32,000 nt of DNA, taken from the NCBI GenBank assembly GCA_000002975.1, contig AJ010592.2, forward strand, positions 30,001 through 62,000. Direction: 5' to 3'. How positions within the stretch are numbered: position 1 is the stretch's first letter; the number at the start of each line of letters is the position of its first letter. The notes beneath the pieces were generated by a model. It was not told the DNA's origin. It saw nothing but the letters and a program-made list of their open reading frames with translations, and did not search any database. Shown in pieces: positions 1,310 through 29,709 of this stretch. This DNA comes from Guillardia theta nucleomorph (lineage: Eukaryota; Protista; Cryptophyta). The position numbers and the translations under genes were made by a program.

Positions 1310-3190
1310 TCAATATATTTTCTTTCTAAAAAAATTTTCTATTATAAAACCTTGAAATAAAATGTTGAAAAAATTGAGTTTAAATATTTTCCCAAAATTA
1401 TTTGTTAAATCATCTCTTTTATTGTATTTAAATAAAAATTTATTATCACAGAAGATAAGAGATTTCGAATTATAAAGAAAAAGGTAACCAGTTTTGTTCT
1501 CAATATTTTGAAAGTTTCGAATTTCGATGTTTGTTTTTGGATTAATATTACTACAAATCAAAAAGTTAAAATAATTTACTTGATTAAGAAAAACATAAGA
1601 ATTTTCTTTAATAAAACAATAATTTAGAATATAAGAATACAGAATCAATTCTAAATCTTTTGTAAATTCAAAATTTTTTATTTTTATATTTAAAAATATT
1701 TCTTTTGATATTGAACTTATTTTGATAAGCTCCATATATTCACTGAAACTTTTAAACAAAGGATTAAATCTTAATTTGCTTTGTTTTGGATAGAATAAAT
1801 TTTGAGTAAATAAGATTTTTTTTCTAGATAAATAATAATTTAATTTTTCATTAAAGTGCACGGAACTATTTCTCAATCTGAAATATTCTTTATTATTATC
1901 TTTGAAATTCAAATTATAATTATTTAAAAAGAAAAAATCATTAAAAACACAATCTTTTTTTTCACTACATAAAAAAATATCATTTAACGTAGATTTTTTG
2001 GACAATTTTGCTTTATAAAAATTTATATATTTTCTTAAAAAACTAAATTTTAATTCATATTTTTTATCTGAATAAGTTTTTTTAAATATTGTTAACATAT
2101 TTTTTTTTTTTTCATGATCAAAAAGATTCATCTTAATCAAGTTAAATTGGTAAATAAAACCATCTAAATATGTAAGCTTACAACAATTATTATTATGAAT
2201 TTTCATAACAAAGAAAAAACCTAAATCAATATCGATTTTTGATTTTTTATTTTTCTCCAATAAATTAGTATCTAAAATATCAAAATCATTACTAGTATTA
2301 AATGAAAGATTATTCGATAATGTTTCAAAAAAATAACTTTTATCGAAGTTTGTATAATTTTTAATTTTTTCGATATTCACAAGGAATAAAAATACAAAAT
2401 ACTTATGTTCAGATGTTTTATTTTTATACTTGCGAAAAAAATTGTTACTATTTAAGGAATTATAATAATATTTTTCAGGATATATTTCTTTTTTTTCTAT
2501 AAAAACAGTATTTTTATTTGTAATTTTGTTGTTTCTAGCACTATTTGATAGATCGAATATTTGGTTCTGGTTAATATTATTTAACAAAAATCTGAATAAA
2601 AAAATTAAAATCGAAAATAAATAAAATTTTATGTTTTTTTTGTAGTTTACTAAATTATCGTGATCTAAATTATTTTTTTTTAAAAAAAAATCAAAAAAGG
2701 TTATTAAATTTAATATAAAGCAATTGATTTTTATCTTGTTATAAAAATACTTTGTAAATTTAGAAAAAAATAGCTCAATTGTTATGAAAATGTGACAAAA
2801 ATAATTGATTTTATATATACAAATTGGATTAAAAAGATAAAAAGCTTTAATAAAATAGGTGAATTTTTTAATGAAAATTATTAAAGAGTTGTCAAATGAA
2901 TCAGTTTTAATTTTTCTTTTCTTTTCACATTTTCTTTTTTTATATTTTATTATTAAATTGATTTTCTTTTTTTTTTTTTTATATAAATTATACACCTTAT
3001 TTTCTTTAGAAAAAATTGTAAATCTAATAAAGATATCTTTTTTTTTAATTATTTTGTAATTAAATTTCTTAAAAAGTTTTTTTTTTATACTACCAAAGTT
3101 TTTAATATTTTTCTCAAATTGATTTGTTTTCCTATAAAACCAACTTTTATGTTTTCTAGTTGAAAAATTATGTTGTTTTTTTTCAATCAT
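1310..3190 (-). CDS. hypothetical protein, 626 aa, K/N/F/I-rich orphan
   Basis: Long ATG-initiated ORF in very AT-rich DNA, filling the space between recognised genes. No motif recognised. Confidence 0.75.
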   Translation of the reverse strand: MIEKKQHNFSTRKHKSWFYRKTNQFEKNIKNFGSIKKKLFKKFNYKIIKKKDIFIRFTIFSKENKVYNLYKKKKKKINLIIKYKKRKCEKKRKIKTDSFDNSLIIFIKKFTYFIKAFYLFNPICIYKINYFCHIFITIELFFSKFTKYFYNKIKINCFILNLITFFDFFLKKNNLDHDNLVNYKKNIKFYLFSILIFLFRFLLNNINQNQIFDLSNSARNNKITNKNTVFIEKKEIYPEKYYYNSLNSNNFFRKYKNKTSEHKYFVFLFLVNIEKIKNYTNFDKSYFFETLSNNLSFNTSNDFDILDTNLLEKNKKSKIDIDLGFFFVMKIHNNNCCKLTYLDGFIYQFNLIKMNLFDHEKKKNMLTIFKKTYSDKKYELKFSFLRKYINFYKAKLSKKSTLNDIFLCSEKKDCVFNDFFFLNNYNLNFKDNNKEYFRLRNSSVHFNEKLNYYLSRKKILFTQNLFYPKQSKLRFNPLFKSFSEYMELIKISSISKEIFLNIKIKNFEFTKDLELILYSYILNYCFIKENSYVFLNQVNYFNFLICSNINPKTNIEIRNFQNIENKTGYLFLYNSKSLIFCDNKFLFKYNKRDDLTNNFGKIFKLNFFNILFQGFIIENFFRKKIY

Positions 3191-6379: not shown

Positions 6380-9196
6380 ATGATTTCTTCGAATTATGCC
6401 AAGGTTGTTATTCATGGAAATTATGGAATTAAAATAAAAAATTTATCAAATTTAATTAATCACGTAACTGATTTTAAAATATTATTTTTTTTGCTAACAA
6501 GAGTATTAAAAAGAAAAAAAAACTTTATTTTATATGTTAAAAAAAAATTTGAGAATAGCAAAATTTTTTATTTATGGGAACAATTAAGAAAAGACTTGAT
6601 TCAATTAAATTACTTGAAAATTGGATATACATCTGAATTAACTGAGCAAATTTTGAAAGAAATTGCAAAAAATTTTATGTATGGAACTAATCTTGATAAT
6701 ATAAAAAAATCTTTAAATATGAATTCTAAAGAAATTAACCATTTTTTGAATAATTTGTTAAATTTAAATTTGATTCAAAAGAGGAAAATTTATAGTCAAT
6801 CAAATAATAAAAATATATTTTACATAGCAAAGACATCGATAAAACATAAAGAATATGAAAAAATTAACACGATAAATAATCAAGATGAATTTTTAAGTCA
6901 AGATGACCATATAATTATTAGGAATTTGTTACAATTTTTACTGAGAACTAAAAATAATTTTGACAATCAAAAAATCGTAAAATATGGTTTAATGTATTCA
7001 AATATTTTAAATTTATACGAAAAGAGACAAATTCATAGATTGTGGCAGAAAATAAAGAAAAAACTATCTAAATCTGGAATATTAAAAACAAATACATATA
7101 TCAATAAAAATTATAATAATTTCAATTTAAATCTAAAAAATCAAAACTTTTTTAAAAGAAGATTCCCAAAAAAAAATTTTAATACTTTGATTAAAAATAA
7201 AAAAACATTGAATGAATTAAAGTTATTTTTTAAAAGTAATATTAAAATGATAGTCGAAAATATTAATTGTTTTTATTCCAAAAAGGGTTATAATTCTCCT
7301 TTTCTTAGAGACAAAATGAATGGATTTATAAATAAAAAAATTATTGAAAAATTTTTTTCTGAAATGGTCAATTTTAATTATTATCAAAAGATAATTGAAC
7401 AAAAAGGAAGACAAAGAATTATTAAATATCAGTTATTAGAACCAAAAGATTTTGAAATTTATGAGAAAAAATCATATTACAAAAATTTTAGCATTCAATT
7501 TTTCCTTAGAATTAAAACAGTTCTTGAATGGATAAAAAACAAAGTTATTTTATTAAAAGATTTAAGCAGAAAACTTGCAATTCATGAACAAAAAGGTTTA
7601 AGTAGAATAGATTCTAAAGTAATAAAAAAAATTTTATATGTTTTGATTAAAAAAAAAAAAATAAAAATAGTCAAATTAAAAATTACCACTAAAAAAACAA
7701 AAAATAGATATTTTGACATTATATTGAAGCCAAGTTTTGAAATAAAAAACCTTAAAAATATTTTCGAAAATGTATTTATCACTTCTGTTTATGAAAAAAA
7801 AGACCATATAAAGAAATATTCAAAAAATTTATCAAACGTTAAATTTTTTCAAAAATTTAATTTATTTTTTTCTAAAATTGTTTTTCTTAATTACAGAATT
7901 TTTTTTTTTGTGAAATTCAAAAATACAATTCATATTAAAAAAAAATATAAAAGATTATCAAAGTATAAATATATTCGACTCAGTATATTTAATATATTAA
8001 ATAAAATTAAAAAGTTTACTGAAATTTTTTTTTTAAAATTTGAAAAACAAAATATTCTGAATAGGAAAAAAAAGATATTTACTATTATATATAAAATTTA
8101 TATATATTCAAATTTATATCTCGAATTTATAAAATTTTATAAAAATTTTAAAATATTGATTTTTTCAACTGGTTCTTACCGAAAAAAATTTTTTAAACTA
8201 TCAATTAACACTGAAAATTTCATACAATTTAAAAACTGGAGTTCTGAAATTGATATTTATTTACTTAATAAGTATATTTATTCTTGGTCACGAAAAAACG
8301 ATAATATTAGCTTTTTTAAATCTAAAAAAAATATTAAACTCAATCGAAGAACGAAATCGAATCTTTCTATATCAAATGTAAAATCACTAAGACTTTTAGA
8401 ATTAAATTTATTGGATATCACAACTAAATTAATCAATAAAAGTTTTTGTACATCTGATTGGACAAAAAGATCAATGGAATTACCTATTGACTATCTAACG
8501 TTTTATTTAAATTTTATTTGTTTTTCAGAATTCAATTTTGATAAAGATTCAGAAAAATTTTTTTTGAAAAAATGTTCAAATATTATTAAGAGTAATTTGA
8601 AGTTCTTCTTCACCTTAACAGAAGATGAAAAGCTAATTTTACACACCTTTGGAAAATTGAAATTAAATTTATTTATTTTATTTAGTAGATTATTTCTGAA
8701 AAATATTTTTTATATGAAGACAAATAATCAAGATTTAGGAAGAAAAATTTTGGTAAAAACCTTTCAAAGATTCATACTTGAAATTTTTGGATTTTATCCG
8801 TTTTTCTTAATTAAAAATCAAATAAAATTCAAATTTAATATAGCAAATCAAACCATCAGCCTTAATAACTTGTATTCTAGATATCTGTCTAAATATTATT
8901 TCTATAATTATTGGGAATTTACTTTAAATCAAAAAACATTTAATTGTATAAACAATATAAAATCTGTCGAGAGAGACTCTTTTAAAAAATTTCGCAACAT
9001 ATCTTACAAAGTTTTGAATATGATTGGAAAATTTAAAAACCTAAATTTAATTCTAATAGGAAATATTGAAAAAAAAATTGGAGTATTGAAGCGTAACATC
9101 AAAATTTCAAATTCATCATATTTAAATTTAAGAATAGAAGAATTATTTTTAATTCCCAGAAACTTATCATGTTTTTTTTCTCGAAATAGTCTTTAG
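6380..9196 (+). CDS. probable divergent TFIIIC B-box-binding subunit (Tfc3/tau138/GTF3C1)
   Basis: Winged-helix-like ILKEIAK..GTNLDNIKKSLNMNSKEINHFLNNLLNLNLI, EQKGRQRIIKY (cf. recalled human EDEGRQRTTKY) and RIDSKVIKKILYVL (cf. plant MDRKTLDRIL), in the expected order. Confidence 0.68.
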   Translation: MISSNYAKVVIHGNYGIKIKNLSNLINHVTDFKILFFLLTRVLKRKKNFILYVKKKFENSKIFYLWEQLRKDLIQLNYLKIGYTSELTEQILKEIAKNFMYGTNLDNIKKSLNMNSKEINHFLNNLLNLNLIQKRKIYSQSNNKNIFYIAKTSIKHKEYEKINTINNQDEFLSQDDHIIIRNLLQFLLRTKNNFDNQKIVKYGLMYSNILNLYEKRQIHRLWQKIKKKLSKSGILKTNTYINKNYNNFNLNLKNQNFFKRRFPKKNFNTLIKNKKTLNELKLFFKSNIKMIVENINCFYSKKGYNSPFLRDKMNGFINKKIIEKFFSEMVNFNYYQKIIEQKGRQRIIKYQLLEPKDFEIYEKKSYYKNFSIQFFLRIKTVLEWIKNKVILLKDLSRKLAIHEQKGLSRIDSKVIKKILYVLIKKKKIKIVKLKITTKKTKNRYFDIILKPSFEIKNLKNIFENVFITSVYEKKDHIKKYSKNLSNVKFFQKFNLFFSKIVFLNYRIFFFVKFKNTIHIKKKYKRLSKYKYIRLSIFNILNKIKKFTEIFFLKFEKQNILNRKKKIFTIIYKIYIYSNLYLEFIKFYKNFKILIFSTGSYRKKFFKLSINTENFIQFKNWSSEIDIYLLNKYIYSWSRKNDNISFFKSKKNIKLNRRTKSNLSISNVKSLRLLELNLLDITTKLINKSFCTSDWTKRSMELPIDYLTFYLNFICFSEFNFDKDSEKFFLKKCSNIIKSNLKFFFTLTEDEKLILHTFGKLKLNLFILFSRLFLKNIFYMKTNNQDLGRKILVKTFQRFILEIFGFYPFFLIKNQIKFKFNIANQTISLNNLYSRYLSKYYFYNYWEFTLNQKTFNCINNIKSVERDSFKKFRNISYKVLNMIGKFKNLNLILIGNIEKKIGVLKRNIKISNSSYLNLRIEELFLIPRNLSCFFSRNSL

Positions 9197-9254: not shown

Positions 9255-9644
9255 TTATAGTTCAGCATTTTTATTTTTAAAATAATCATTTGAAAAATTT
9301 TTTTTTTTTTTTTTTTTAACAAGTGTTATTTTATTGAGGAAACTTTGAATATTTTTTCGGTTTTCAAAAATTAATTTAGGATCTTTAAAAAACTTTTCAA
9401 GATATATATTATTTAAAAGATCGTTTATATTTATCTTTTCTCTATTATTTAACCAAGATGACTCAATTGCAAAACGACAAATTTTTTTCAAAAAAAAATT
9501 TATACAAAAATTGAAAATTTTTTTAAATTCTTCATGAAAGTGAAGGTTCATTTTTAAATTGCTTTTTTTTTCGATTAAATTTTCAAGCTTAATTCTTAAA
9601 AAATCAGCAAACACATTTGCCATAGTTTCGCAATTATGATACAT
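9255..9644 (-). CDS. small histone-fold protein (NF-Y/NC2/TAF-like)
   Basis: EEFKKIFNFCINFFLKKICRFAIESSWLNNREKININDLL fits the alpha2-loop-alpha3 pattern of histone folds (R..I...D). Confidence 0.55.
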   Translation of the reverse strand: MYHNCETMANVFADFLRIKLENLIEKKSNLKMNLHFHEEFKKIFNFCINFFLKKICRFAIESSWLNNREKININDLLNNIYLEKFFKDPKLIFENRKNIQSFLNKITLVKKKKKKNFSNDYFKNKNAEL

Positions 9645-14283: not shown

Positions 14284-15186
14284 ATGTTATTTGTGAAATA
14301 TATTTTAAATAAAAAATTTTATATTAAATTTAAGTTGTTTTGTTTGATTATTTGCAATCGAATTAGGAGCATCTTTATTTTTGCATATTTTAATTATAGA
14401 AATAAATTTGCACAATTTAGTCTAATTTTTTTTTCAAAAAATCTATCAATGGCTTTGTATAAACTCTTCAATATAAAATTTAAATTTAAAAATTTTAAAC
14501 AATTTACAAAAAATGAATTTGTACTAAATATTAAAATTCAAAAAAATTCTCTAAATTTTAAATTGATCACTCATATACATAAGATGCTTGCTAAAAGTTT
14601 TACTCTTTTATTCTATAATCAATTTTCCTCTATTGATAATAATAAAATAATAACAGATAAACTGATTAAAAATAGAATTTACTACGTTACTTGTAATTAT
14701 TGTAAAAAAAAATTTAGAAACATTGAAATTATCCATTCATATATAAATACTGATGAGTGTGTGTTCAAAGAATATTTTTTGTTTACAAATTTTAATTGTG
14801 TTTTTTGTAATAAATCAGTAAATATAACAATCCAAGTAAGAGAAAAATTTCGTAAAAATATTTATAATTTAGCTAAAATGATAATAATAGAAAATTTCTC
14901 CTTAAAATCATTAAAAAAAATGATTTTCAAATTTAAATTATGTTGTTTTGAACAATTTTATATTTTTATTTTTCCAAAATATATGATTTTGAATGATTTT
15001 AATGAGATGAAAAATCTTTTTTTTAGTATTTATAACTTTGAAACTTTTGTTATAAGTTATAATATATTTAATAAGAATTTAAATAGATCTATTGGTTTTC
15101 TTGATAATCGAATTTATTTAAAGAAATTTTTTAATTATAAAATTATAGAATTAAATAAAATAATTTTTGATTTATTTTCTAGTTAA
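14284..15186 (+). CDS. hypothetical protein with C4 zinc ribbon; candidate TFIIE-alpha (Tfa1)
   Basis: VTCNYCKKKF...FNCVFCNKSV in mid-protein resembles the TFIIE-alpha ribbon (CPxCxxxF...FxCxxC). Confidence 0.5.
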   Translation: MLFVKYILNKKFYIKFKLFCLIICNRIRSIFIFAYFNYRNKFAQFSLIFFSKNLSMALYKLFNIKFKFKNFKQFTKNEFVLNIKIQKNSLNFKLITHIHKMLAKSFTLLFYNQFSSIDNNKIITDKLIKNRIYYVTCNYCKKKFRNIEIIHSYINTDECVFKEYFLFTNFNCVFCNKSVNITIQVREKFRKNIYNLAKMIIIENFSLKSLKKMIFKFKLCCFEQFYIFIFPKYMILNDFNEMKNLFFSIYNFETFVISYNIFNKNLNRSIGFLDNRIYLKKFFNYKIIELNKIIFDLFSS

Positions 15187-15208: not shown

Positions 15209-17404
15209 ATGTATAATTTAAAAAAATTTTATTTTTTTTTTAAAAACTACTTAGTATCCGCAGATCTATTAAATTTTACAAAGTTTAATAAATTGAAAAA
15301 AAATAATATGATAAATAATAATAATTTTAATTCATTTTCAAAAGTTCACAGATCATCTTTGTTGAAAAAATTTAAATTATATTGCTTATTTGATTTTGTA
15401 ATTTATAAGTTTATTAAATTTTTCAAAAATATAAATAAAAAAAAAAGAAGTAAAATTAAAAAAAAGGCTTTAATACTACTTAATAACAACATTCATATTA
15501 TTAATATATTTGAAATTTTATTTTTGTCTCTAAAAATTAAAATTGCTTACAATAATAAGTTAAATATTATTTTCGATACAAAAATGTATTTCAGATTTAA
15601 CTTAAGAATTCTAAAAAGTTTTATACATAAATTTTTACTAACATCAGCAATTATTTCTAATATAAACTACTTCTTTATTTACAAACTATCATATAACTGT
15701 ATCCAAACTTTAAAGAAAATTTGTTTTAAAAAATTCATAATAATTTTAAATCAACATAGTGGAAAATTATCATTTGAGAAATCAAATAATATTTTTGTCT
15801 TTTATATATTTTCGTCCGTTCTAATTCTCATATTCTTTAATTATTATCTATTTTACAATAAGTTCATTCTGGATATGAAATCGCAGCTATTTAGCTCTTT
15901 TTTTTTTATTGATAAAAATATTATATTTTCTATTCCTCAATCAAATTATATAATAAATACCGATATTAATAATATAATTTACATATTGATTTTAAATTTT
16001 ACAAATTCAATTCTATTCAGTCTAAAAAAATGGATTTTTCTTCTTAAAAAAACTGAATACATGAGAAATAATATAATTTTAATACTCACATTTAGTAAAT
16101 TATCGAATAAATTGAACAAAAATGTTGTGTATAATTTATTCAACCTAAAGGTTTTTGAATTGTTAAAAAAAAGATTCATCGATAATAATCATTATACTCG
16201 TCTTCTTTTTGATTTTATAGTTGAGATAATTATCAAATCAAAAAATTATAAAATTATAAATCAAAAAATTTCAACAATTAATATTTGCTTTAGACTTTTT
16301 TTTATTTTTCATGAAAAATTAATCAAGATTAATGAGATAAAATTTAGATATTTTGGGTTTATAAAATGGCTATTAAACTTTAAATATAACAATACTGAAG
16401 TTTTGACAATTTATTTCATTCTTAGACTTATTAAATTTAAAAAATACATTAAAGATAATAAATTTAGTTTGTTTACTATCAAATTTGTATTATCAAAGAT
16501 TAATTCCGATGATAACTCCTTTGGGTTATTATACTTAAAAATTATATTAAAATATTTTAATAAAATCAGACATAATATATCTTATTATTTAAGATTAAAG
16601 ATCAGTACAGAAATTAACATTTTTTTTCATAAATATAATTCAGTATTACTATTGGAATTTCCTAGTTTTTTCACGAAATTTTATAATAAAGAGCTTATCA
16701 AATCTTTTCATCTAATAATAAAATACTCAAATTTCAATATAATAAATGTCAAAAACTGTTTAAATCTACTAAGCTTGAACTTAAAGTATATAGGTCCTAT
16801 ATTTATTATAAATTTATTCTTTAAAAATATACATGGAAAAAAAATTAAACCCAAATTAATAGGGATTATTTTGAGTTCTATTTTGAGTAATAAAAAAGAT
16901 ATAACACTATTTTCCTTGATTGTCATTAAATTTAATTATTTTTGTTACTCCGAAAAAAAAAAGATCCTTAAAGTTTTTTTTTTTATAATTCATTTGAGTA
17001 GTGACAATTTTTACATTAAATTTTCTAAGATGATAATAATTTTTATAAAAATGATATTCAAATATAAAACACTAATTAATACTGAAAACTATTTTTTATT
17101 ATTTAATTTAATTTTGGAAAAAAATATCAAGATTTTAAAAAAAATAAATTGTATTAATTACTATTATCTAATATCCAATTTAATAAATATTAATAAAAGT
17201 AATATCAAACACATAATTTTATTTATTAAATTATTATTTCATCTTATAGATCTAGAAAATACTAAAATTTTATATATATTTAAGATAACTATAAGCAAAA
17301 AAGTTAAATTAAGAAAAGTTTTCTTAAATTTATTATTTGCAATTTCAAAAATAAATTATCTATTTTTTCAAAATTTAAAAAAAAATTTAATTAATTATTT
17401 ATAG
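15209..17404 (+). CDS. HEAT-repeat protein, probable divergent splicing factor SF3B1/Hsh155
   Basis: LKYIGPIFIINLFFKNI (cf. AKAIGPHDVLATLLNNL), KKKILKVFFFI (cf. QNGVLKSLSFL) and KVKLRKVF near the C-terminus (cf. ARKVRDVY). First ATG is at 15209; the track starts at TTG 15167. Confidence 0.6.
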   Translation: MYNLKKFYFFFKNYLVSADLLNFTKFNKLKKNNMINNNNFNSFSKVHRSSLLKKFKLYCLFDFVIYKFIKFFKNINKKKRSKIKKKALILLNNNIHIINIFEILFLSLKIKIAYNNKLNIIFDTKMYFRFNLRILKSFIHKFLLTSAIISNINYFFIYKLSYNCIQTLKKICFKKFIIILNQHSGKLSFEKSNNIFVFYIFSSVLILIFFNYYLFYNKFILDMKSQLFSSFFFIDKNIIFSIPQSNYIINTDINNIIYILILNFTNSILFSLKKWIFLLKKTEYMRNNIILILTFSKLSNKLNKNVVYNLFNLKVFELLKKRFIDNNHYTRLLFDFIVEIIIKSKNYKIINQKISTINICFRLFFIFHEKLIKINEIKFRYFGFIKWLLNFKYNNTEVLTIYFILRLIKFKKYIKDNKFSLFTIKFVLSKINSDDNSFGLLYLKIILKYFNKIRHNISYYLRLKISTEINIFFHKYNSVLLLEFPSFFTKFYNKELIKSFHLIIKYSNFNIINVKNCLNLLSLNLKYIGPIFIINLFFKNIHGKKIKPKLIGIILSSILSNKKDITLFSLIVIKFNYFCYSEKKKILKVFFFIIHLSSDNFYIKFSKMIIIFIKMIFKYKTLINTENYFLLFNLILEKNIKILKKINCINYYYLISNLININKSNIKHIILFIKLLFHLIDLENTKILYIFKITISKKVKLRKVFLNLLFAISKINYLFFQNLKKNLINYL

Positions 17405-18940: not shown

Positions 18941-20233
18941 TTATATACTATTTAACCATTTTGTGTCTAACGGTGTCAATATTAGTAATAAGTTTTTCAA
19001 TAATAAATATTTTTTTTCTAAATTATTGAATATATAAATTGGGGAATTTTTTTGGTGAACTTTGCTAAAAATTTTTTTCATTACCCACATACCATTAAAG
19101 GTTATTTCTTTTTTCTTAAACTTAGATAGTTCTAAAACAAATAGATTTTTTAAATAAATGTGATGATATAACATTAAATTATTATTTATTGTATTATATA
19201 GTAATCTATTATTAATTTTAGAAAAGTGTAATTCAATTTCAGAATAAACTTCTTTTTTTATAAAATTAACTACAAAATCTGACAATTTAATGTATTTTTC
19301 TAGAGACATATTAAATGAAATTATTGAAAATATAACTTGGTAAAAAAATATTTTACTGATAATATTCTGATTTATATTAGTTTGTTTACTATAAAAAATA
19401 TAATGTCTTATTAAAATTATAGCAATTTTCAAAAAATTATTTTTGATAAATTTATTTAAAAATTTTAATAATATTATTCTTGTAGAAAACGGAGGAGAAA
19501 ATAAGTTTAAATATAATAAAATCATAAAAAAGAGTATTTTTTCTCGATTTAATTTATTGATTTTCTTTAATACATATAAAAAGTTAAAATCCAACTCCAA
19601 ATTAAAATAACTTAAAAGCTTGTTAGTATGAAAATTATTTGATGCATATATAAAATCAAAAAAATTTCTTATATTTATTTTAAAAGTATTGTGTAGGAAA
19701 GATCTGGATAAATTTGAAAAAAACAAAGTAAAATAATCAGAATTTTTATGGTAATTTTGTTTATTTCTAATTTTTAATACCTTAATGTAGTTTTTTATTA
19801 GTTTTATTTTTAATTTGTTCGAAATGTGAGTTAGAATAATTCTCATCATAAAAATACTATTTAAACAATATTGACTTACGTTCTTTAAATAAAGTTTATC
19901 TAGTATCACTTGAAAATTAGTTTTACTTAGAAACAGTAATTTTAATTCATCACACAATTTTACTTTTTCTTTTTTTATAATAAAATTTTGCTGATTGATC
20001 ATTAAAAAATAAGGGTCAAAATTATAAGATAAACTTTCAGTATTAAAATTTTCGATATGAAATGTAATAAAAATTTTAAAGAAAAAATAATTTTTACATT
20101 TTATCTTAAATATATTCATTATGTTCTCCATTTTAATATTCAAAAAATTTTTGGAAAAATATTCATATTTCATTTTGAACACCAAAATGTAAAATAAGGT
20201 TTTTACATTTTCAGTAATATTTGCTAGACTCAT
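18941..20233 (-). CDS. probable divergent nucleolar complex protein Noc2
   Basis: Colinear segments PFSTRIILLKFL, LEKYIKLS, VLELSKFKK..MKKIFSKVHQKNSPI and terminal TPL resemble the Noc2 segments FYPLRxHCIR, ILKLS, VLQLKSF..LLGKVQENS and GTPL. Confidence 0.58.
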   Translation of the reverse strand: MSLANITENVKTLFYILVFKMKYEYFSKNFLNIKMENIMNIFKIKCKNYFFFKIFITFHIENFNTESLSYNFDPYFLMINQQNFIIKKEKVKLCDELKLLFLSKTNFQVILDKLYLKNVSQYCLNSIFMMRIILTHISNKLKIKLIKNYIKVLKIRNKQNYHKNSDYFTLFFSNLSRSFLHNTFKINIRNFFDFIYASNNFHTNKLLSYFNLELDFNFLYVLKKINKLNREKILFFMILLYLNLFSPPFSTRIILLKFLNKFIKNNFLKIAIILIRHYIFYSKQTNINQNIISKIFFYQVIFSIISFNMSLEKYIKLSDFVVNFIKKEVYSEIELHFSKINNRLLYNTINNNLMLYHHIYLKNLFVLELSKFKKKEITFNGMWVMKKIFSKVHQKNSPIYIFNNLEKKYLLLKNLLLILTPLDTKWLNSI

Positions 20234-20261: not shown

Positions 20262-20774
20262 TCAATATTTATTAGAATACTTCAAAAAAATACATAAAAA
20301 CAAAATTTGAAAACCTAAAACAAATTTATTATAATTAGATTTAATATTTTTTTTAAAATTCGAATAGAATTTATCATTATAAAACTTTTTTAGCTTAACT
20401 AGATTTGAATTAATTAAGCTAATTTTTAATTTTGTTTTGTTTGATTTTGAAAACATATTTTCTATATTACCTATAATGTTATAACCAAATTCTTTTACTG
20501 AAAATTCTTTATCGATATATTTATAAAATTTTGAATAATACGAAATTGAATTCAAATTGTTTAAATGATTCGAATATTTAAAAAAATAAGAAATAAATAA
20601 TTTAAATAACCTAGTATGATAGGAGTATCTATATTTTATAAATTTAAGATAAAAACTAATGTAAGTTTTACAAGACAAGTATGTCGTTATTATTTCATCA
20701 TGTATATTTGAATGACTTTTTAAAATATATATGATAAATAAACAATTTATTTTAAATAATTTTGTTAAATTCAT
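20262..20774 (-). CDS. hypothetical tail-anchored protein; possible degenerate Sec22-like R-SNARE
   Basis: C-terminal hydrophobic FVLGFQILFLCIFL, preceded by NIE...KKFYND with Sec22-like spacing. Confidence 0.4.
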   Translation of the reverse strand: MNLTKLFKINCLFIIYILKSHSNIHDEIITTYLSCKTYISFYLKFIKYRYSYHTRLFKLFISYFFKYSNHLNNLNSISYYSKFYKYIDKEFSVKEFGYNIIGNIENMFSKSNKTKLKISLINSNLVKLKKFYNDKFYSNFKKNIKSNYNKFVLGFQILFLCIFLKYSNKY

Positions 20775-21474: not shown

Positions 21475-21717
21475 ATGTTTGGATCCAATTTGTTAATAAA
21501 ATCAAATTTACAAAAATTATTTATGATAAACAATAAAAAAAATCTATCTAAAAACCAAGTTATTAGAACGATGAGTGTAAAACATAATGGAAATTCTACT
21601 GAAAGTATAATTCATGGGAAAAAAATTAAAAGAAGATGTATAGTTATGTCCAAATTTAAAAAATTAAGATACAGAGGAAAATTTATTTTTTTTATTAATG
21701 GGTATAAAATATTATAA
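21475..21717 (+). CDS. small hypothetical protein, 80 aa
   Basis: ATG ORF divergent from rps0, filling an otherwise unusually long gap. No clear family. Confidence 0.45.
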   Translation: MFGSNLLIKSNLQKLFMINNKKNLSKNQVIRTMSVKHNGNSTESIIHGKKIKRRCIVMSKFKKLRYRGKFIFFINGYKIL

Positions 21718-21811: not shown

Positions 21812-22831
21812 ATGATTATAGATCGAGAATTTTTACAACTAAGGAAATATTATAGAAAAATAAAATTCGAATCTTCTGATAATGAAATAATTTATAGAAA
21901 AATAGTTAAAATCAAATCCATTATTAAAAATATATTAATTAATTTGTTATTTTTTATCAAATTAACAATTAAACAACCCAGAAAAAAAATAACTTTTAAT
22001 TTACTTAATAATATAATAAAAAATAAAATAAATTACATACCATCATTTAGTTATTTATTTGATACTATATCTAAGTCAAAAATTTTTAAGCCAAATACTT
22101 TTATACAACCAATAAATTACGAAAAAAATGTTATATTAAAAAAGGATATACTATGTTTATTAAACTATAAATATATCATAATTAAAACCGATAATACTTC
22201 TGAAAAAAAAAAAAAAAAAATTTACAATTTTAATAATATTCTCAAGAATAAATTTTTAAAAAATTTTCTTTCTACTCAAAATTATTCTTCTAAAGATAAA
22301 ATAACTTTAAATTTTAACCAGATAGTCTATATTATTGATCTAAATTTTAATTTAAAAAAAAATAAAAAAAAAGTTAATAATGTTAATTTAAATAAAATTA
22401 TAACAACATATTCGTTTAATCATAGAAAATATGATGAAACTTTTTTTAAAATTTTAATTTTTTTTGTTAGATGTTATGTTTTAACTATTGAATATTATAA
22501 GAATTCTAATATAAAATTTTTAATAATGTATGAAATGATTTTGTTTAATAATTCAAAATTATTAAACAACTCCTTTTATCAATTAAATAAAAAAATTAGG
22601 TATCATCTATTTAAAAATATTGTTAATCTTCAACCTAAATTAAATTATTTTATTTTTTCCATCATAAGAGTGATAAAACGTGGTTTAAATTTTATAGAAT
22701 TATGGATACATCCACATTCTAAAACATTACATGAAATTTTACAAAAAAAGATTAAAACAAAGTCTTTGAATGTAAAATATTTTAGATTCTTAACTTATAT
22801 CCGCACATTTATCATTAATATGGTAAAATGA
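21812..22831 (+). CDS. hypothetical protein, 339 aa
   Basis: Long ORF in AT-rich DNA. No motif recognised. Confidence 0.7.
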   Translation: MIIDREFLQLRKYYRKIKFESSDNEIIYRKIVKIKSIIKNILINLLFFIKLTIKQPRKKITFNLLNNIIKNKINYIPSFSYLFDTISKSKIFKPNTFIQPINYEKNVILKKDILCLLNYKYIIIKTDNTSEKKKKKIYNFNNILKNKFLKNFLSTQNYSSKDKITLNFNQIVYIIDLNFNLKKNKKKVNNVNLNKIITTYSFNHRKYDETFFKILIFFVRCYVLTIEYYKNSNIKFLIMYEMILFNNSKLLNNSFYQLNKKIRYHLFKNIVNLQPKLNYFIFSIIRVIKRGLNFIELWIHPHSKTLHEILQKKIKTKSLNVKYFRFLTYIRTFIINMVK

Positions 22832-28767: not shown

Positions 28768-28845
28768 ATGAGAAATAAATGGAAAAAAAAAAGGATGCGT
28801 AGACTTAGAAGAAAAAGAAGACAATTAAAGTTAAGGTCTAAATGA
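28768..28845 (+). CDS. rpl41: 60S ribosomal protein L41 (eL41), 25 aa
   Basis: Translation MRNKWKKKRMRRLRRKRRQLKLRSK*. Below the ORF-track size limit. Confidence 0.95.
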   Translation: MRNKWKKKRMRRLRRKRRQLKLRSK

Positions 28846-28891: not shown

Positions 28892-29140
28892 ATGAACAGG
28901 TTTGAAGAATTAAAAAATTGTGTTGACAATTTGTTTAAAGATTTGAAGAAATTTTTTATAAAAAAAAATAAATCAGCAGGAGTTAGAGCTCGTAAAAAGC
29001 TTCAAAAATGTAAAAAACTGTGTCAAGAAATTCGTAATTATATTCAAAAAATTAAGTTGGAAGATTACCAGAAGCGAGCTGAAGTTTACTCTAGCAGAGC
29101 CGCCTTTTTGGCAGAAAATTTTTTTAGAAAAACTAATTAA
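28892..29140 (+). CDS. Hc1-family (histone H1-like nucleoid protein) homolog, 82 aa
   Basis: D..KFF.K.NKSAGVRARK.LQ..K.L.QEIR matches the recalled Hc1 core (K.NKAAGTR.RK...LK.LAQ.IR). Confidence 0.75.
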   Translation: MNRFEELKNCVDNLFKDLKKFFIKKNKSAGVRARKKLQKCKKLCQEIRNYIQKIKLEDYQKRAEVYSSRAAFLAENFFRKTN

Positions 29141-29217
29141 TTTATAGACATTCGTTCAAAATATTTAAAAAAATAAAGTGTATGTGTATATTATTTAATT
29201 ACAATCAATTAAAATAA

Positions 29218-29709
29218 CTAATTAATACTTATATTTTCATCACAATTATTTTTTATAAAATCAATGTTAATATTCCATTGAGGTAAACTTCTTAATTCTA
29301 ATTGTGTACCGTCATTTAACTTAACTACAACATCTGCAAATTTTCCTCCAAATCTAGTGATATAGTTAATTTTCTTTACATCTCTATAAACAATTTCGAC
29401 ATGTTCTTTACCCATAAAGCCTGAATCTACACAGATTCTTCTGTTCGTAATAGTATATTTCACCCAAAATTGTCTCATCAAAGTAGCTAGAAAAGGAATA
29501 ATACCCACAACCGTTAATATTGATAAAAAAGGTATAATTAGTTCATATTTGGAAGGTGGACCTTGAAAAAAGACTTTTTCAGTCTCAATTTTAGGTTTAT
29601 TGCTTGTTGTTTTGTCTAAATTATTAATTATCAAATTTCGTCTGTAATTATATATTAATTCTTTATTTAATTTTTTGTTTGTTTTAATTGGAATATAATT
29701 AACAAACAT
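29218..29709 (-). CDS. plastid-targeted bacterial PH (bPH_2/DUF304-like) membrane protein of cyanobacterial type
   Basis: N-terminal MFVN transit-like segment, E.VFFQGPP, a hydrophobic stretch, then WVKYTITNRRI.V.SG..G and DVVVKL.DG.QLELRSLP. Confidence 0.8.
   Translation of the reverse strand: MFVNYIPIKTNKKLNKELIYNYRRNLIINNLDKTTSNKPKIETEKVFFQGPPSKYELIIPFLSILTVVGIIPFLATLMRQFWVKYTITNRRICVDSGFMGKEHVEIVYRDVKKINYITRFGGKFADVVVKLNDGTQLELRSLPQWNINIDFIKNNCDENISIN

Follow-up and report, generated by a model that had tools for sequence, protein, structure and literature searches.

An Hc1-domain protein listed as 'h1' in cryptophyte nucleomorphs: probable red-algal descent and a possible role as a small DNA-binding architectural protein

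We reread the nucleomorph gene known as 'h1' as encoding a tail-less Hc1-domain protein that has been remodelled in this lineage, and the reading that fits the Guillardia theta copy best is that it is neither a histone H1 nor a chlamydia-type condenser. The account that we prefer, and hold tentatively, is that the protein acts in the nucleomorph as a small architectural protein that binds DNA as a dimer; the dimer is predicted, while we infer its binding face, ligand and location. The gene and its family match already stand in databases, where the label 'histone H1' is misleading. New here, besides the rereading and the lineage-specific remodelling, are a predicted antiparallel homodimer, a putative basic stripe on helix 2 that runs through the family, a gain of charge specific to nucleomorphs and a conserved Ala/Lys helix extension. 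A previous reading, made from the sequence alone, had called the gene product a DNA-condensing Hc1 protein of bacterial or giant-virus type. Its observation is confirmed and its interpretation partly supported: the family holds, and condensation and a bacterial or giant-virus origin do not follow from it.

The gene lies in a stretch of 32,000 nucleotides that was analysed as a whole (the window), and its features are collected in Table 1. The Pfam Hc1 profile (PF07432) matched the protein along profile positions 1-55 of 57, with an E-value of 1.6e-15 and a score of 57.1 bits against a curated cut-off of 23.5, as the family call of the sequence-only reading had predicted. Its description of a basic ORF of 82 residues was also borne out in coordinates, length and composition, lysine and arginine making up 28.0% of the residues (rank 2 among the 25 correctly framed ORFs of the window) and net charge amounting to +17 per 100 residues (rank 3 of the same 25). 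NCBIfam and PHROGs gave no score near a cut-off. As a control for chance, we made a profile solely of bacterial and viral relatives (64 sequences). It yielded 73.3 bits for the protein, -2.2 bits for its reversed sequence and 9.6 bits for the best of 2000 shuffles (1944 scored); in a six-frame comparison with the whole window, the runner-up segment reached 6.7 bits. The residues that are conserved family-wide (D17, K20, F21, N26, A29, G30, R32, R34, K35, Q38, K41, Q45 and R48) are complete in the protein. A core beginning at about residue 1 had been proposed; this is correct for the domain, whereas the motif quoted for it occupies residues 20-48.

Table 1. Features at and around the Hc1-domain gene, in window positions.
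Feature	Position	Strand	Remarks
Ribosomal protein L41 (25 aa)	28768..28845	+	Pfam E 5.1e-8; 46 bases upstream of the Hc1 start codon
Hc1-domain gene	28892..29140	+	82-aa ORF
Hc1 domain (PF07432)	28892..29056	+	Residues 1-55
Nucleomorph-type helix 2 extension	29057..29137	+	Residues 56-82; no H1-like tail rich in lysine
Likely 3' untranslated end of transcript through the Hc1 ORF	29141..29364	+	Inferred from read peak; overlaps convergent gene
Bacterial PH domain protein (163 aa)	29218-29709	-	bPH_2, E 9.2e-11

The 82-residue protein is present in NCBI, UniRef and MMETSP records, and orthology with CMESO_300 and CPARA_2gp302 makes it very likely that its ORF is the gene listed as 'h1' by Kim et al. 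(2022; PMC9548191, Table S1). That table is reported to place 'h1' in each of the eight cryptophyte nucleomorph genomes that have been sequenced, three of them non-photosynthetic, which agrees with the earlier suggestion that the gene is retained in these reduced genomes. It files the gene under DNA metabolism, with loci CMESO_300, HAN_2g360, Cthechr2144 and CPARA_2gp302. In the accessible parts of that paper, the words 'histone' and 'Hc1' are absent from the main text and 'h1' occurs in the supplementary table only. These 'h1' genes and the nr entry 'histone H1 [Cryptomonas paramecium]' (UXY86892.1) belong to one orthologous group with the window protein; the label suggests a linker histone, but the window protein has the Hc1 domain only. 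Eukaryotic linker histone H1 has just its name and basic character in common with it, and differs in possessing a winged-helix globular (H15) domain and a long Lys/Ala/Pro tail. No Pfam linker-histone family matched the window protein, and in the alignment of red-algal and nucleomorph sequences 35 of 35 matched Hc1 and none a linker-histone family at E 0.001.

This rereading reconciles two statements in the literature, that no linker histone gene is apparent in any nucleomorph (Marinov and Lynch, 2016; PMC4822330, as far as accessible) and that eight cryptophyte genomes carry 'h1' (PMC9548191), since the nucleomorph 'h1' is an Hc1-domain protein and not H1. Nucleomorph histones have been reported to be imported from the host, as is thought for H2A (PMC4822330), and a distinct linker histone in a chlorarachniophyte nucleomorph has been left open (Marinov, 2022; PMC8887012, accessible part). 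The accessible parts of three other papers (PMC1403754, PMC1887533 and PMC8566409) hold nothing further on the Hc1 gene. Literature searches, with most subscription papers outside their scope, found no report linking nucleomorphs with Hc1 or treating a Bacteroid Hc1 as a nucleoid-associated protein, nothing on an Hc1-domain protein under red-algal Hc1 and histone, and no binding or localisation report for tail-less Hc1 members.

In chlamydial Hc1 the N-terminal domain dimerises and the C-terminus, rich in lysine, binds DNA (PMC2848022, PMC3469542). By Pfam and the literature, and not by direct alignment, the N-terminal dimerisation domain is common to Chlamydia Hc1 (HctA) and the window protein, which differs from HctA in being without the lysine-rich C-terminal DNA-binding domain. 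That tail is missing from all 34 nucleomorph-type sequences as well, and the word 'DNA-condensing' is not supported: with the N-terminal Hc1 part only, condensation is not transferable by homology.

The nucleomorph proteins stand out by the charge of their core and by what follows it. Median net charge of the core was +10 in the nucleomorph rows (n = 34: five so named, the window protein and 28 assigned by likeness), compared with +3 in named red-algal rows (n = 7, among them one 'Unidentified' MMETSP row assigned by likeness) and +5 in putative red-algal rows (n = 30, all assigned by likeness); it was +2 in both bacterial (n = 78) and viral (n = 68) rows. K36 is found in 97% of the nucleomorph rows, K/R39 in 79% and K/R42 in 91%; position 39 is acidic in 70-97% of red-algal, bacterial and viral rows. 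The extension of helix 2 is marked by Q60 (34/34), K/R61 (33/34), K/R62 (34/34), A/S67 (34/34), A70 (28/34) and A71 (31/34). The nucleomorph tails contain 2-16% lysine (34/34 sequences) and 14-35% K+A+P, with no long Lys/Ala/Pro-rich tail among them, and the 23 residues after the core of the window protein include two lysines and two glutamates. Most other nucleomorph copies have an extra 45-80 variable residues that are absent from the window protein. The red-algal nuclear proteins, some of which carry the UniRef name 'Histone H1', resemble the window protein in falling into one tree group with it, in their invariant residues and in having no lysine-rich tail, but they differ in a core of +3 to +5 against +10, in neutral or acidic tails and in the absence of the Q60-K-K...A70-A71 extension; their full-length net charge ranges from -16 to +9, and many have acidic tails. 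Lysine makes up 9-22% of the other window proteins, AT-driven enrichment being general in the window, and drift in an AT-rich genome may account for part of the nucleomorph Hc1 basicity.

Relatives were collected with a three-sequence nucleomorph-type profile (787 representatives at E 0.001, the best 150 listed) and a 35-sequence profile (375 representatives at E 1e-8, the best 120 listed). The cryptophytes named among the matches listed are Chroomonas mesostigmatica (CMESO_300), Cryptomonas paramecium (CPARA_2gp302) and C. curvata, together with two Cryptomonas nr entries called 'histone H1', and the red algae are Galdieria partita, Cyanidium caldarium, Gracilariopsis chorda, Agarophyton chilense, Rhodosorus and Madagascaria. 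No eukaryote beyond these two groups is named among the matches listed, which does not show absence because most of the listed rows are nameless. The closest named relatives are nucleomorph proteins, and in the window, compact, rich in AT and eukaryotic in kind, genes for tubulin, ribosomal proteins and RNA processing stand next to plastid-type ones such as Tic110, SecE and EngA; both points agree with the nucleomorph setting recognised earlier from the sequence.

Prokaryotic members of the family are stand-alone proteins of 57-60 residues. The best 80 of 558 confirmed bacterial loci (19 of 64 scan parts) come mostly from Bacteroidota, Rhodothermota and Balneolota and include no cyanobacterium; the family occurs in 122 of 201 sampled Bacteroidota genomes and in one of 14 control genomes, Bacteroides thetaiotaomicron. 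It was confirmed in 497 viral stretches (37 of 64 scan parts), and PF07432 has been noted, with function unknown, in jumbo phages (PMC12619734, accessible part). The window protein scored 0.80-0.83 against phage Hc1 clusters of the Atlas, which is a lead only, and its nearest Atlas clusters are mostly Uroviricota; the Galdieria protein scored 0.92-0.93 against Bacteroidota Hc1 clusters. The search with the nucleomorph alignment returned no viral locus and that with the 82-residue protein no match in annotated phages; a bacterial-type relative as query matched three unannotated huge phages. In a metagenome scan (10 of 64 parts) we found two bacterial loci and no nucleomorph locus, and a search for longer, tail-bearing relatives gave one protein and no chlamydial or giant-virus sequence. 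Like the window protein, the stand-alone 57-60 aa proteins named 'histone H1' in Bacteroidota, Rhodothermota, Balneolota and large phages match PF07432, have the invariant residues and lack a tail, but those of Bacteroidota and phages are near-neutral (median +2) and lie on the other side of the tree; as uncharacterised proteins they lend no mechanism. Near the bacterial genes the most frequent neighbour is an aminotransferase (44 loci), followed by a biotin carboxylase (36 loci); DNA polymerase III alpha (14 loci) and DNA ligase (10 loci) are rarer, and all these counts come from related genomes that are not independent. One Bacteroidota genome has a tandem pair of Hc1-domain genes (L044:2995-3442), and two family proteins carry the Hc1 domain twice per chain, an arrangement in keeping with a dimer.

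The trees support vertical descent of the nucleomorph Hc1 gene from the red-algal endosymbiont. In a careful 39-row tree, calculated without a mixture model, a branch with support of 100/99 sets nucleomorph and red-algal rows together apart from the rest, and in the AU test on these rows grouping of the nucleomorph sequences with viral (p 5.3e-5) or with bacterial (p 0.003) sequences was rejected. The split of nucleomorph and red-algal rows recurred in a quick 90-row tree with a mixture model (SH-aLRT 94) and, with two long-branch unnamed rows inside, in a 254-row tree (SH-aLRT 89). All are unrooted trees of 59 columns that hold no chlamydial or giant-virus rows, from a sample drawn from searches seeded with the nucleomorph, red-algal, bacterial and viral groups; five odd or redundant proteins were excluded beforehand, and 344 rows became 254 on removal of near-copies among bacterial, viral and unnamed rows. 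Because the gene groups with red-algal nuclear proteins and the bacterial and viral groupings are rejected, it appears to have come with the endosymbiont. The 'bacterial/giant-virus type', taken as immediate acquisition by the nucleomorph, gives way to red-algal inheritance; for the root of the red algae, a prokaryote or phage may reasonably be supposed as donor. Giant-virus proteins, which the trees do not include, gave weak fold matches only (Klosneuvirus, E 0.015 with 27% identity; Hokovirus, E 0.51). In the 254-row tree each of two distinct red-algal subgroups contains a Gracilariales sequence, so multicellular red algae may have a pair of paralogs, and some members of the red-algal subgroups have long Gln/His/Pro-rich N-termini.

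The predicted model of the protein is a two-helix hairpin (helices 2-23 and 27-81; pLDDT 96). An antiparallel homodimer through residues 4-55 was predicted with a score of 0.60, against 0.00 for the best of three controls, at least 92% contact agreement between runs and pLDDT of at least 76; in a calibration of the mark applied to such predictions, 21 of 30 solved microbial pairs passed it but 0 of 23 microbial single chains, and 17 of 29 eukaryotic pairs but 0 of 30 eukaryotic single chains; of eukaryotic pairs without an older solved relative, however, only one of seven did. This is the outcome that the sequence-only reading had looked for in a dimer prediction, and the predicted dimer is consistent with reports that the N-terminus of the chlamydial protein dimerises. 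Along one side of helix 2 runs a stripe of R34, Q38, K41, Q45, R48, Q52 and K55. Across four groups of sequences (34 nucleomorph, 37 red-algal, 33 bacterial and 31 viral rows), these residues are conserved together with K20, F21, N26, A29, G30, R32 and K35; R32, R34 and R48 stand at 97-100% and Q38, K41 and Q45 at 87-100% in all four, and Q52 and K55 are less conserved in the viral rows. Several stripe residues count among the interface contacts of the dimer model, so the stripe may be conserved for the sake of the dimer. Sequence searches gave no solved relative (best E 0.59 for the protein and 0.044 for a 57-sequence profile), and Foldseek against the PDB and a viral library gave no match at E 0.001. 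The best hit of a wide fold search, the ESCRT-III Snf7 core (Z 8.9, rmsd 2.7, 82 residues aligned, 8% identity), lies below the level trusted for helical models; the fold searches returned generic hairpins, from which nothing is drawn.

RNA reads were examined as raw counts from about 6 in 100 of a pooled dataset and compared with the immediate neighbours only. Plus-strand depth is 57-64 across 28939-29151 of the Hc1 ORF and peaks at 155-165 at 29152-29293, just 3' of the stop codon, compared with maxima of 204 and 207 for the ribosomal protein genes beside it; reads also cover the L41 gene (28768-28845). A missing transcript had been named beforehand as evidence against the earlier reading, and plus-strand reads over the ORF were found. 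The read patterns suggest a sense 3'-end library, and the reads over the ORF could come from its own transcript or from rpl41 read-through, both of which fit. At 29081-29364 reads on both strands overlap, and the convergent transcripts of the Hc1 and PH-domain genes appear to run together. By position, the PH-domain gene is probably the plastid-associated 'orf177' (Cm301, Ha2g361, Gt2g145), which is called functionally mysterious and comes after 'h1' in the locus numbering of three genomes (Kim et al., 2022; PMC9548191, accessible part). The adjoining genes had been taken for orphans, a description that does not hold: Pfam identifies Tic110, ribosomal L41, the bacterial-PH-domain protein, an L6-family ribosomal protein and NOG1. 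In the accessible text of Kim et al. (2022), main text and both supplements, a search for 'rpl41' found nothing, and L41 may accordingly be missing from nucleomorph gene lists.

In the architectural role that we prefer, the protein would form a four-helix antiparallel homodimer in which two copies of helix 2, side by side, present a two-fold symmetric basic and polar stripe. This stripe (R34, Q38, K41, Q45, R48, Q52 and K55), together with R32 and K35, would contact the backbone of duplex DNA, and the gained lysines K36, K39 and K42 and the two extension helices may strengthen binding or bridge neighbouring duplexes. Being without a leader, the protein would remain in the endosymbiont cytosol or nucleus, and at its small size it would presumably need no signal to pass into the nucleomorph. 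Several points weigh against DNA binding. The part of chlamydial Hc1 that binds nucleic acid is the tail and not the Hc1 domain, near-neutral red-algal and bacterial members and many acidic red-algal tails are atypical of DNA packers, and the bacterial gene neighbours offer no DNA-specific hint.

The basic face would suit RNA equally, and a less probable but serious alternative is that the dimer binds RNA: located in the cytosol or nucleolus of the endosymbiont, it would attach to structured RNA or to ribosomes and either dampen or aid translation or the assembly of ribosomes. Plasmid Rop, an antiparallel four-helix bundle that binds RNA with its symmetric basic face, serves as an analogy. By its title, Pedersen (1994) reports that chlamydial Hc1 binds both RNA and DNA and represses translation in vitro, most retained nucleomorph genes are reported to act in translation and RNA processing (Kim et al., 2022; PMC9548191), and the 3' read peak of the Hc1 gene comes near those of the ribosomal protein genes beside it. 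Solved ribosomal and RNA-binding chains, however, gave no sequence match, translation genes are not among the common neighbour families of the bacterial copies, and the adjacency to rpl41 is seen at one locus. We consider it rather unlikely that the Hc1 domain is a dimerisation or adaptor module for another protein and that its basicity in nucleomorphs is compositional drift. The literature does assign dimerisation and not DNA binding to the domain (PMC2848022, PMC3469542), charge is near neutral in bacteria, viruses and red algae, conserved residues run along the predicted interface and nucleomorph proteins are generally lysine-rich; yet R32, K35, K20 and N26 are conserved outside the listed interface contacts of the dimer model, and in the 34 sequences the gained lysines come close to fixation, where drift alone would not keep them. 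A stand-alone 57-residue protein that red algae and phages share with 122 of 201 Bacteroidota genomes would also need a universal partner, for which nucleic acid is the simplest candidate.

Retention of 'h1' in eight of eight genomes and the charge gain with an Ala/Lys helix in the nucleomorph lineage could also be read as functional replacement of linker histone H1 by a protein that compacts nucleomorph chromatin, an explanation that we regard as decidedly unlikely given that all 34 sequences lack a lysine-rich tail (2-16% lysine) and that no H1 globular domain was matched in the family alignment. A conventional H1 has moreover been reported in the red alga Cyanidioschyzon merolae (PMC1955436, PMC9871001, accessible parts), so the red-algal ancestor probably kept both H1 and Hc1; host H1 could be imported, as is thought for H2A (PMC4822330, accessible part), and small green algae are reported, in sources accessible in part, to be viable without H1. 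A plastid nucleoid protein seems highly improbable. The domain is of bacterial type and two plastid-type genes, Tic110 and the bacterial PH domain gene, adjoin it, but in 33 of 34 nucleomorph-type sequences it starts right at Met1 with no N-terminal transit peptide, as had been noted from the sequence; nearly all named bacterial relatives are Bacteroidota, Rhodothermota or Balneolota with no cyanobacterium in the best 80 of 558, and B. thetaiotaomicron is the single carrier among the 14 control genomes.

The DNA-binding architectural reading leaves the nucleomorph Hc1 protein as a concrete, testable and universally retained candidate for nucleomorph chromatin organisation, and any functional result would be the first for the Hc1 proteins without a tail that Bacteroidota and large phages carry. 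A bolder version, which we think fairly unlikely, is that a prokaryote-type Hc1 dimer was gained at the red-algal root and remodelled (from about +4 to +10, with a longer helix) to organise nucleomorph chromatin instead of H1. If true, a nucleoid-type protein of bacterial or phage kind would help to pack a eukaryotic nucleus, and a large uncharacterised family of Bacteroidota and phages would have its first function.

Elsewhere in the window, eight ORFs had no Pfam match (1310-3190, 9255-9644, 14284-15186, 15209-17404, 18941-20233, 20262-20774, 21475-21717 and 21812-22831), and that at 21475-21717 is small and strongly basic (net +22 per 100). A 938-aa ORF on the plus strand (6380-9196) has a weak match to the GTF3C1 extended winged-helix family (29.7 bits against a cut-off of 30) and is possibly a diverged TFIIIC subunit.
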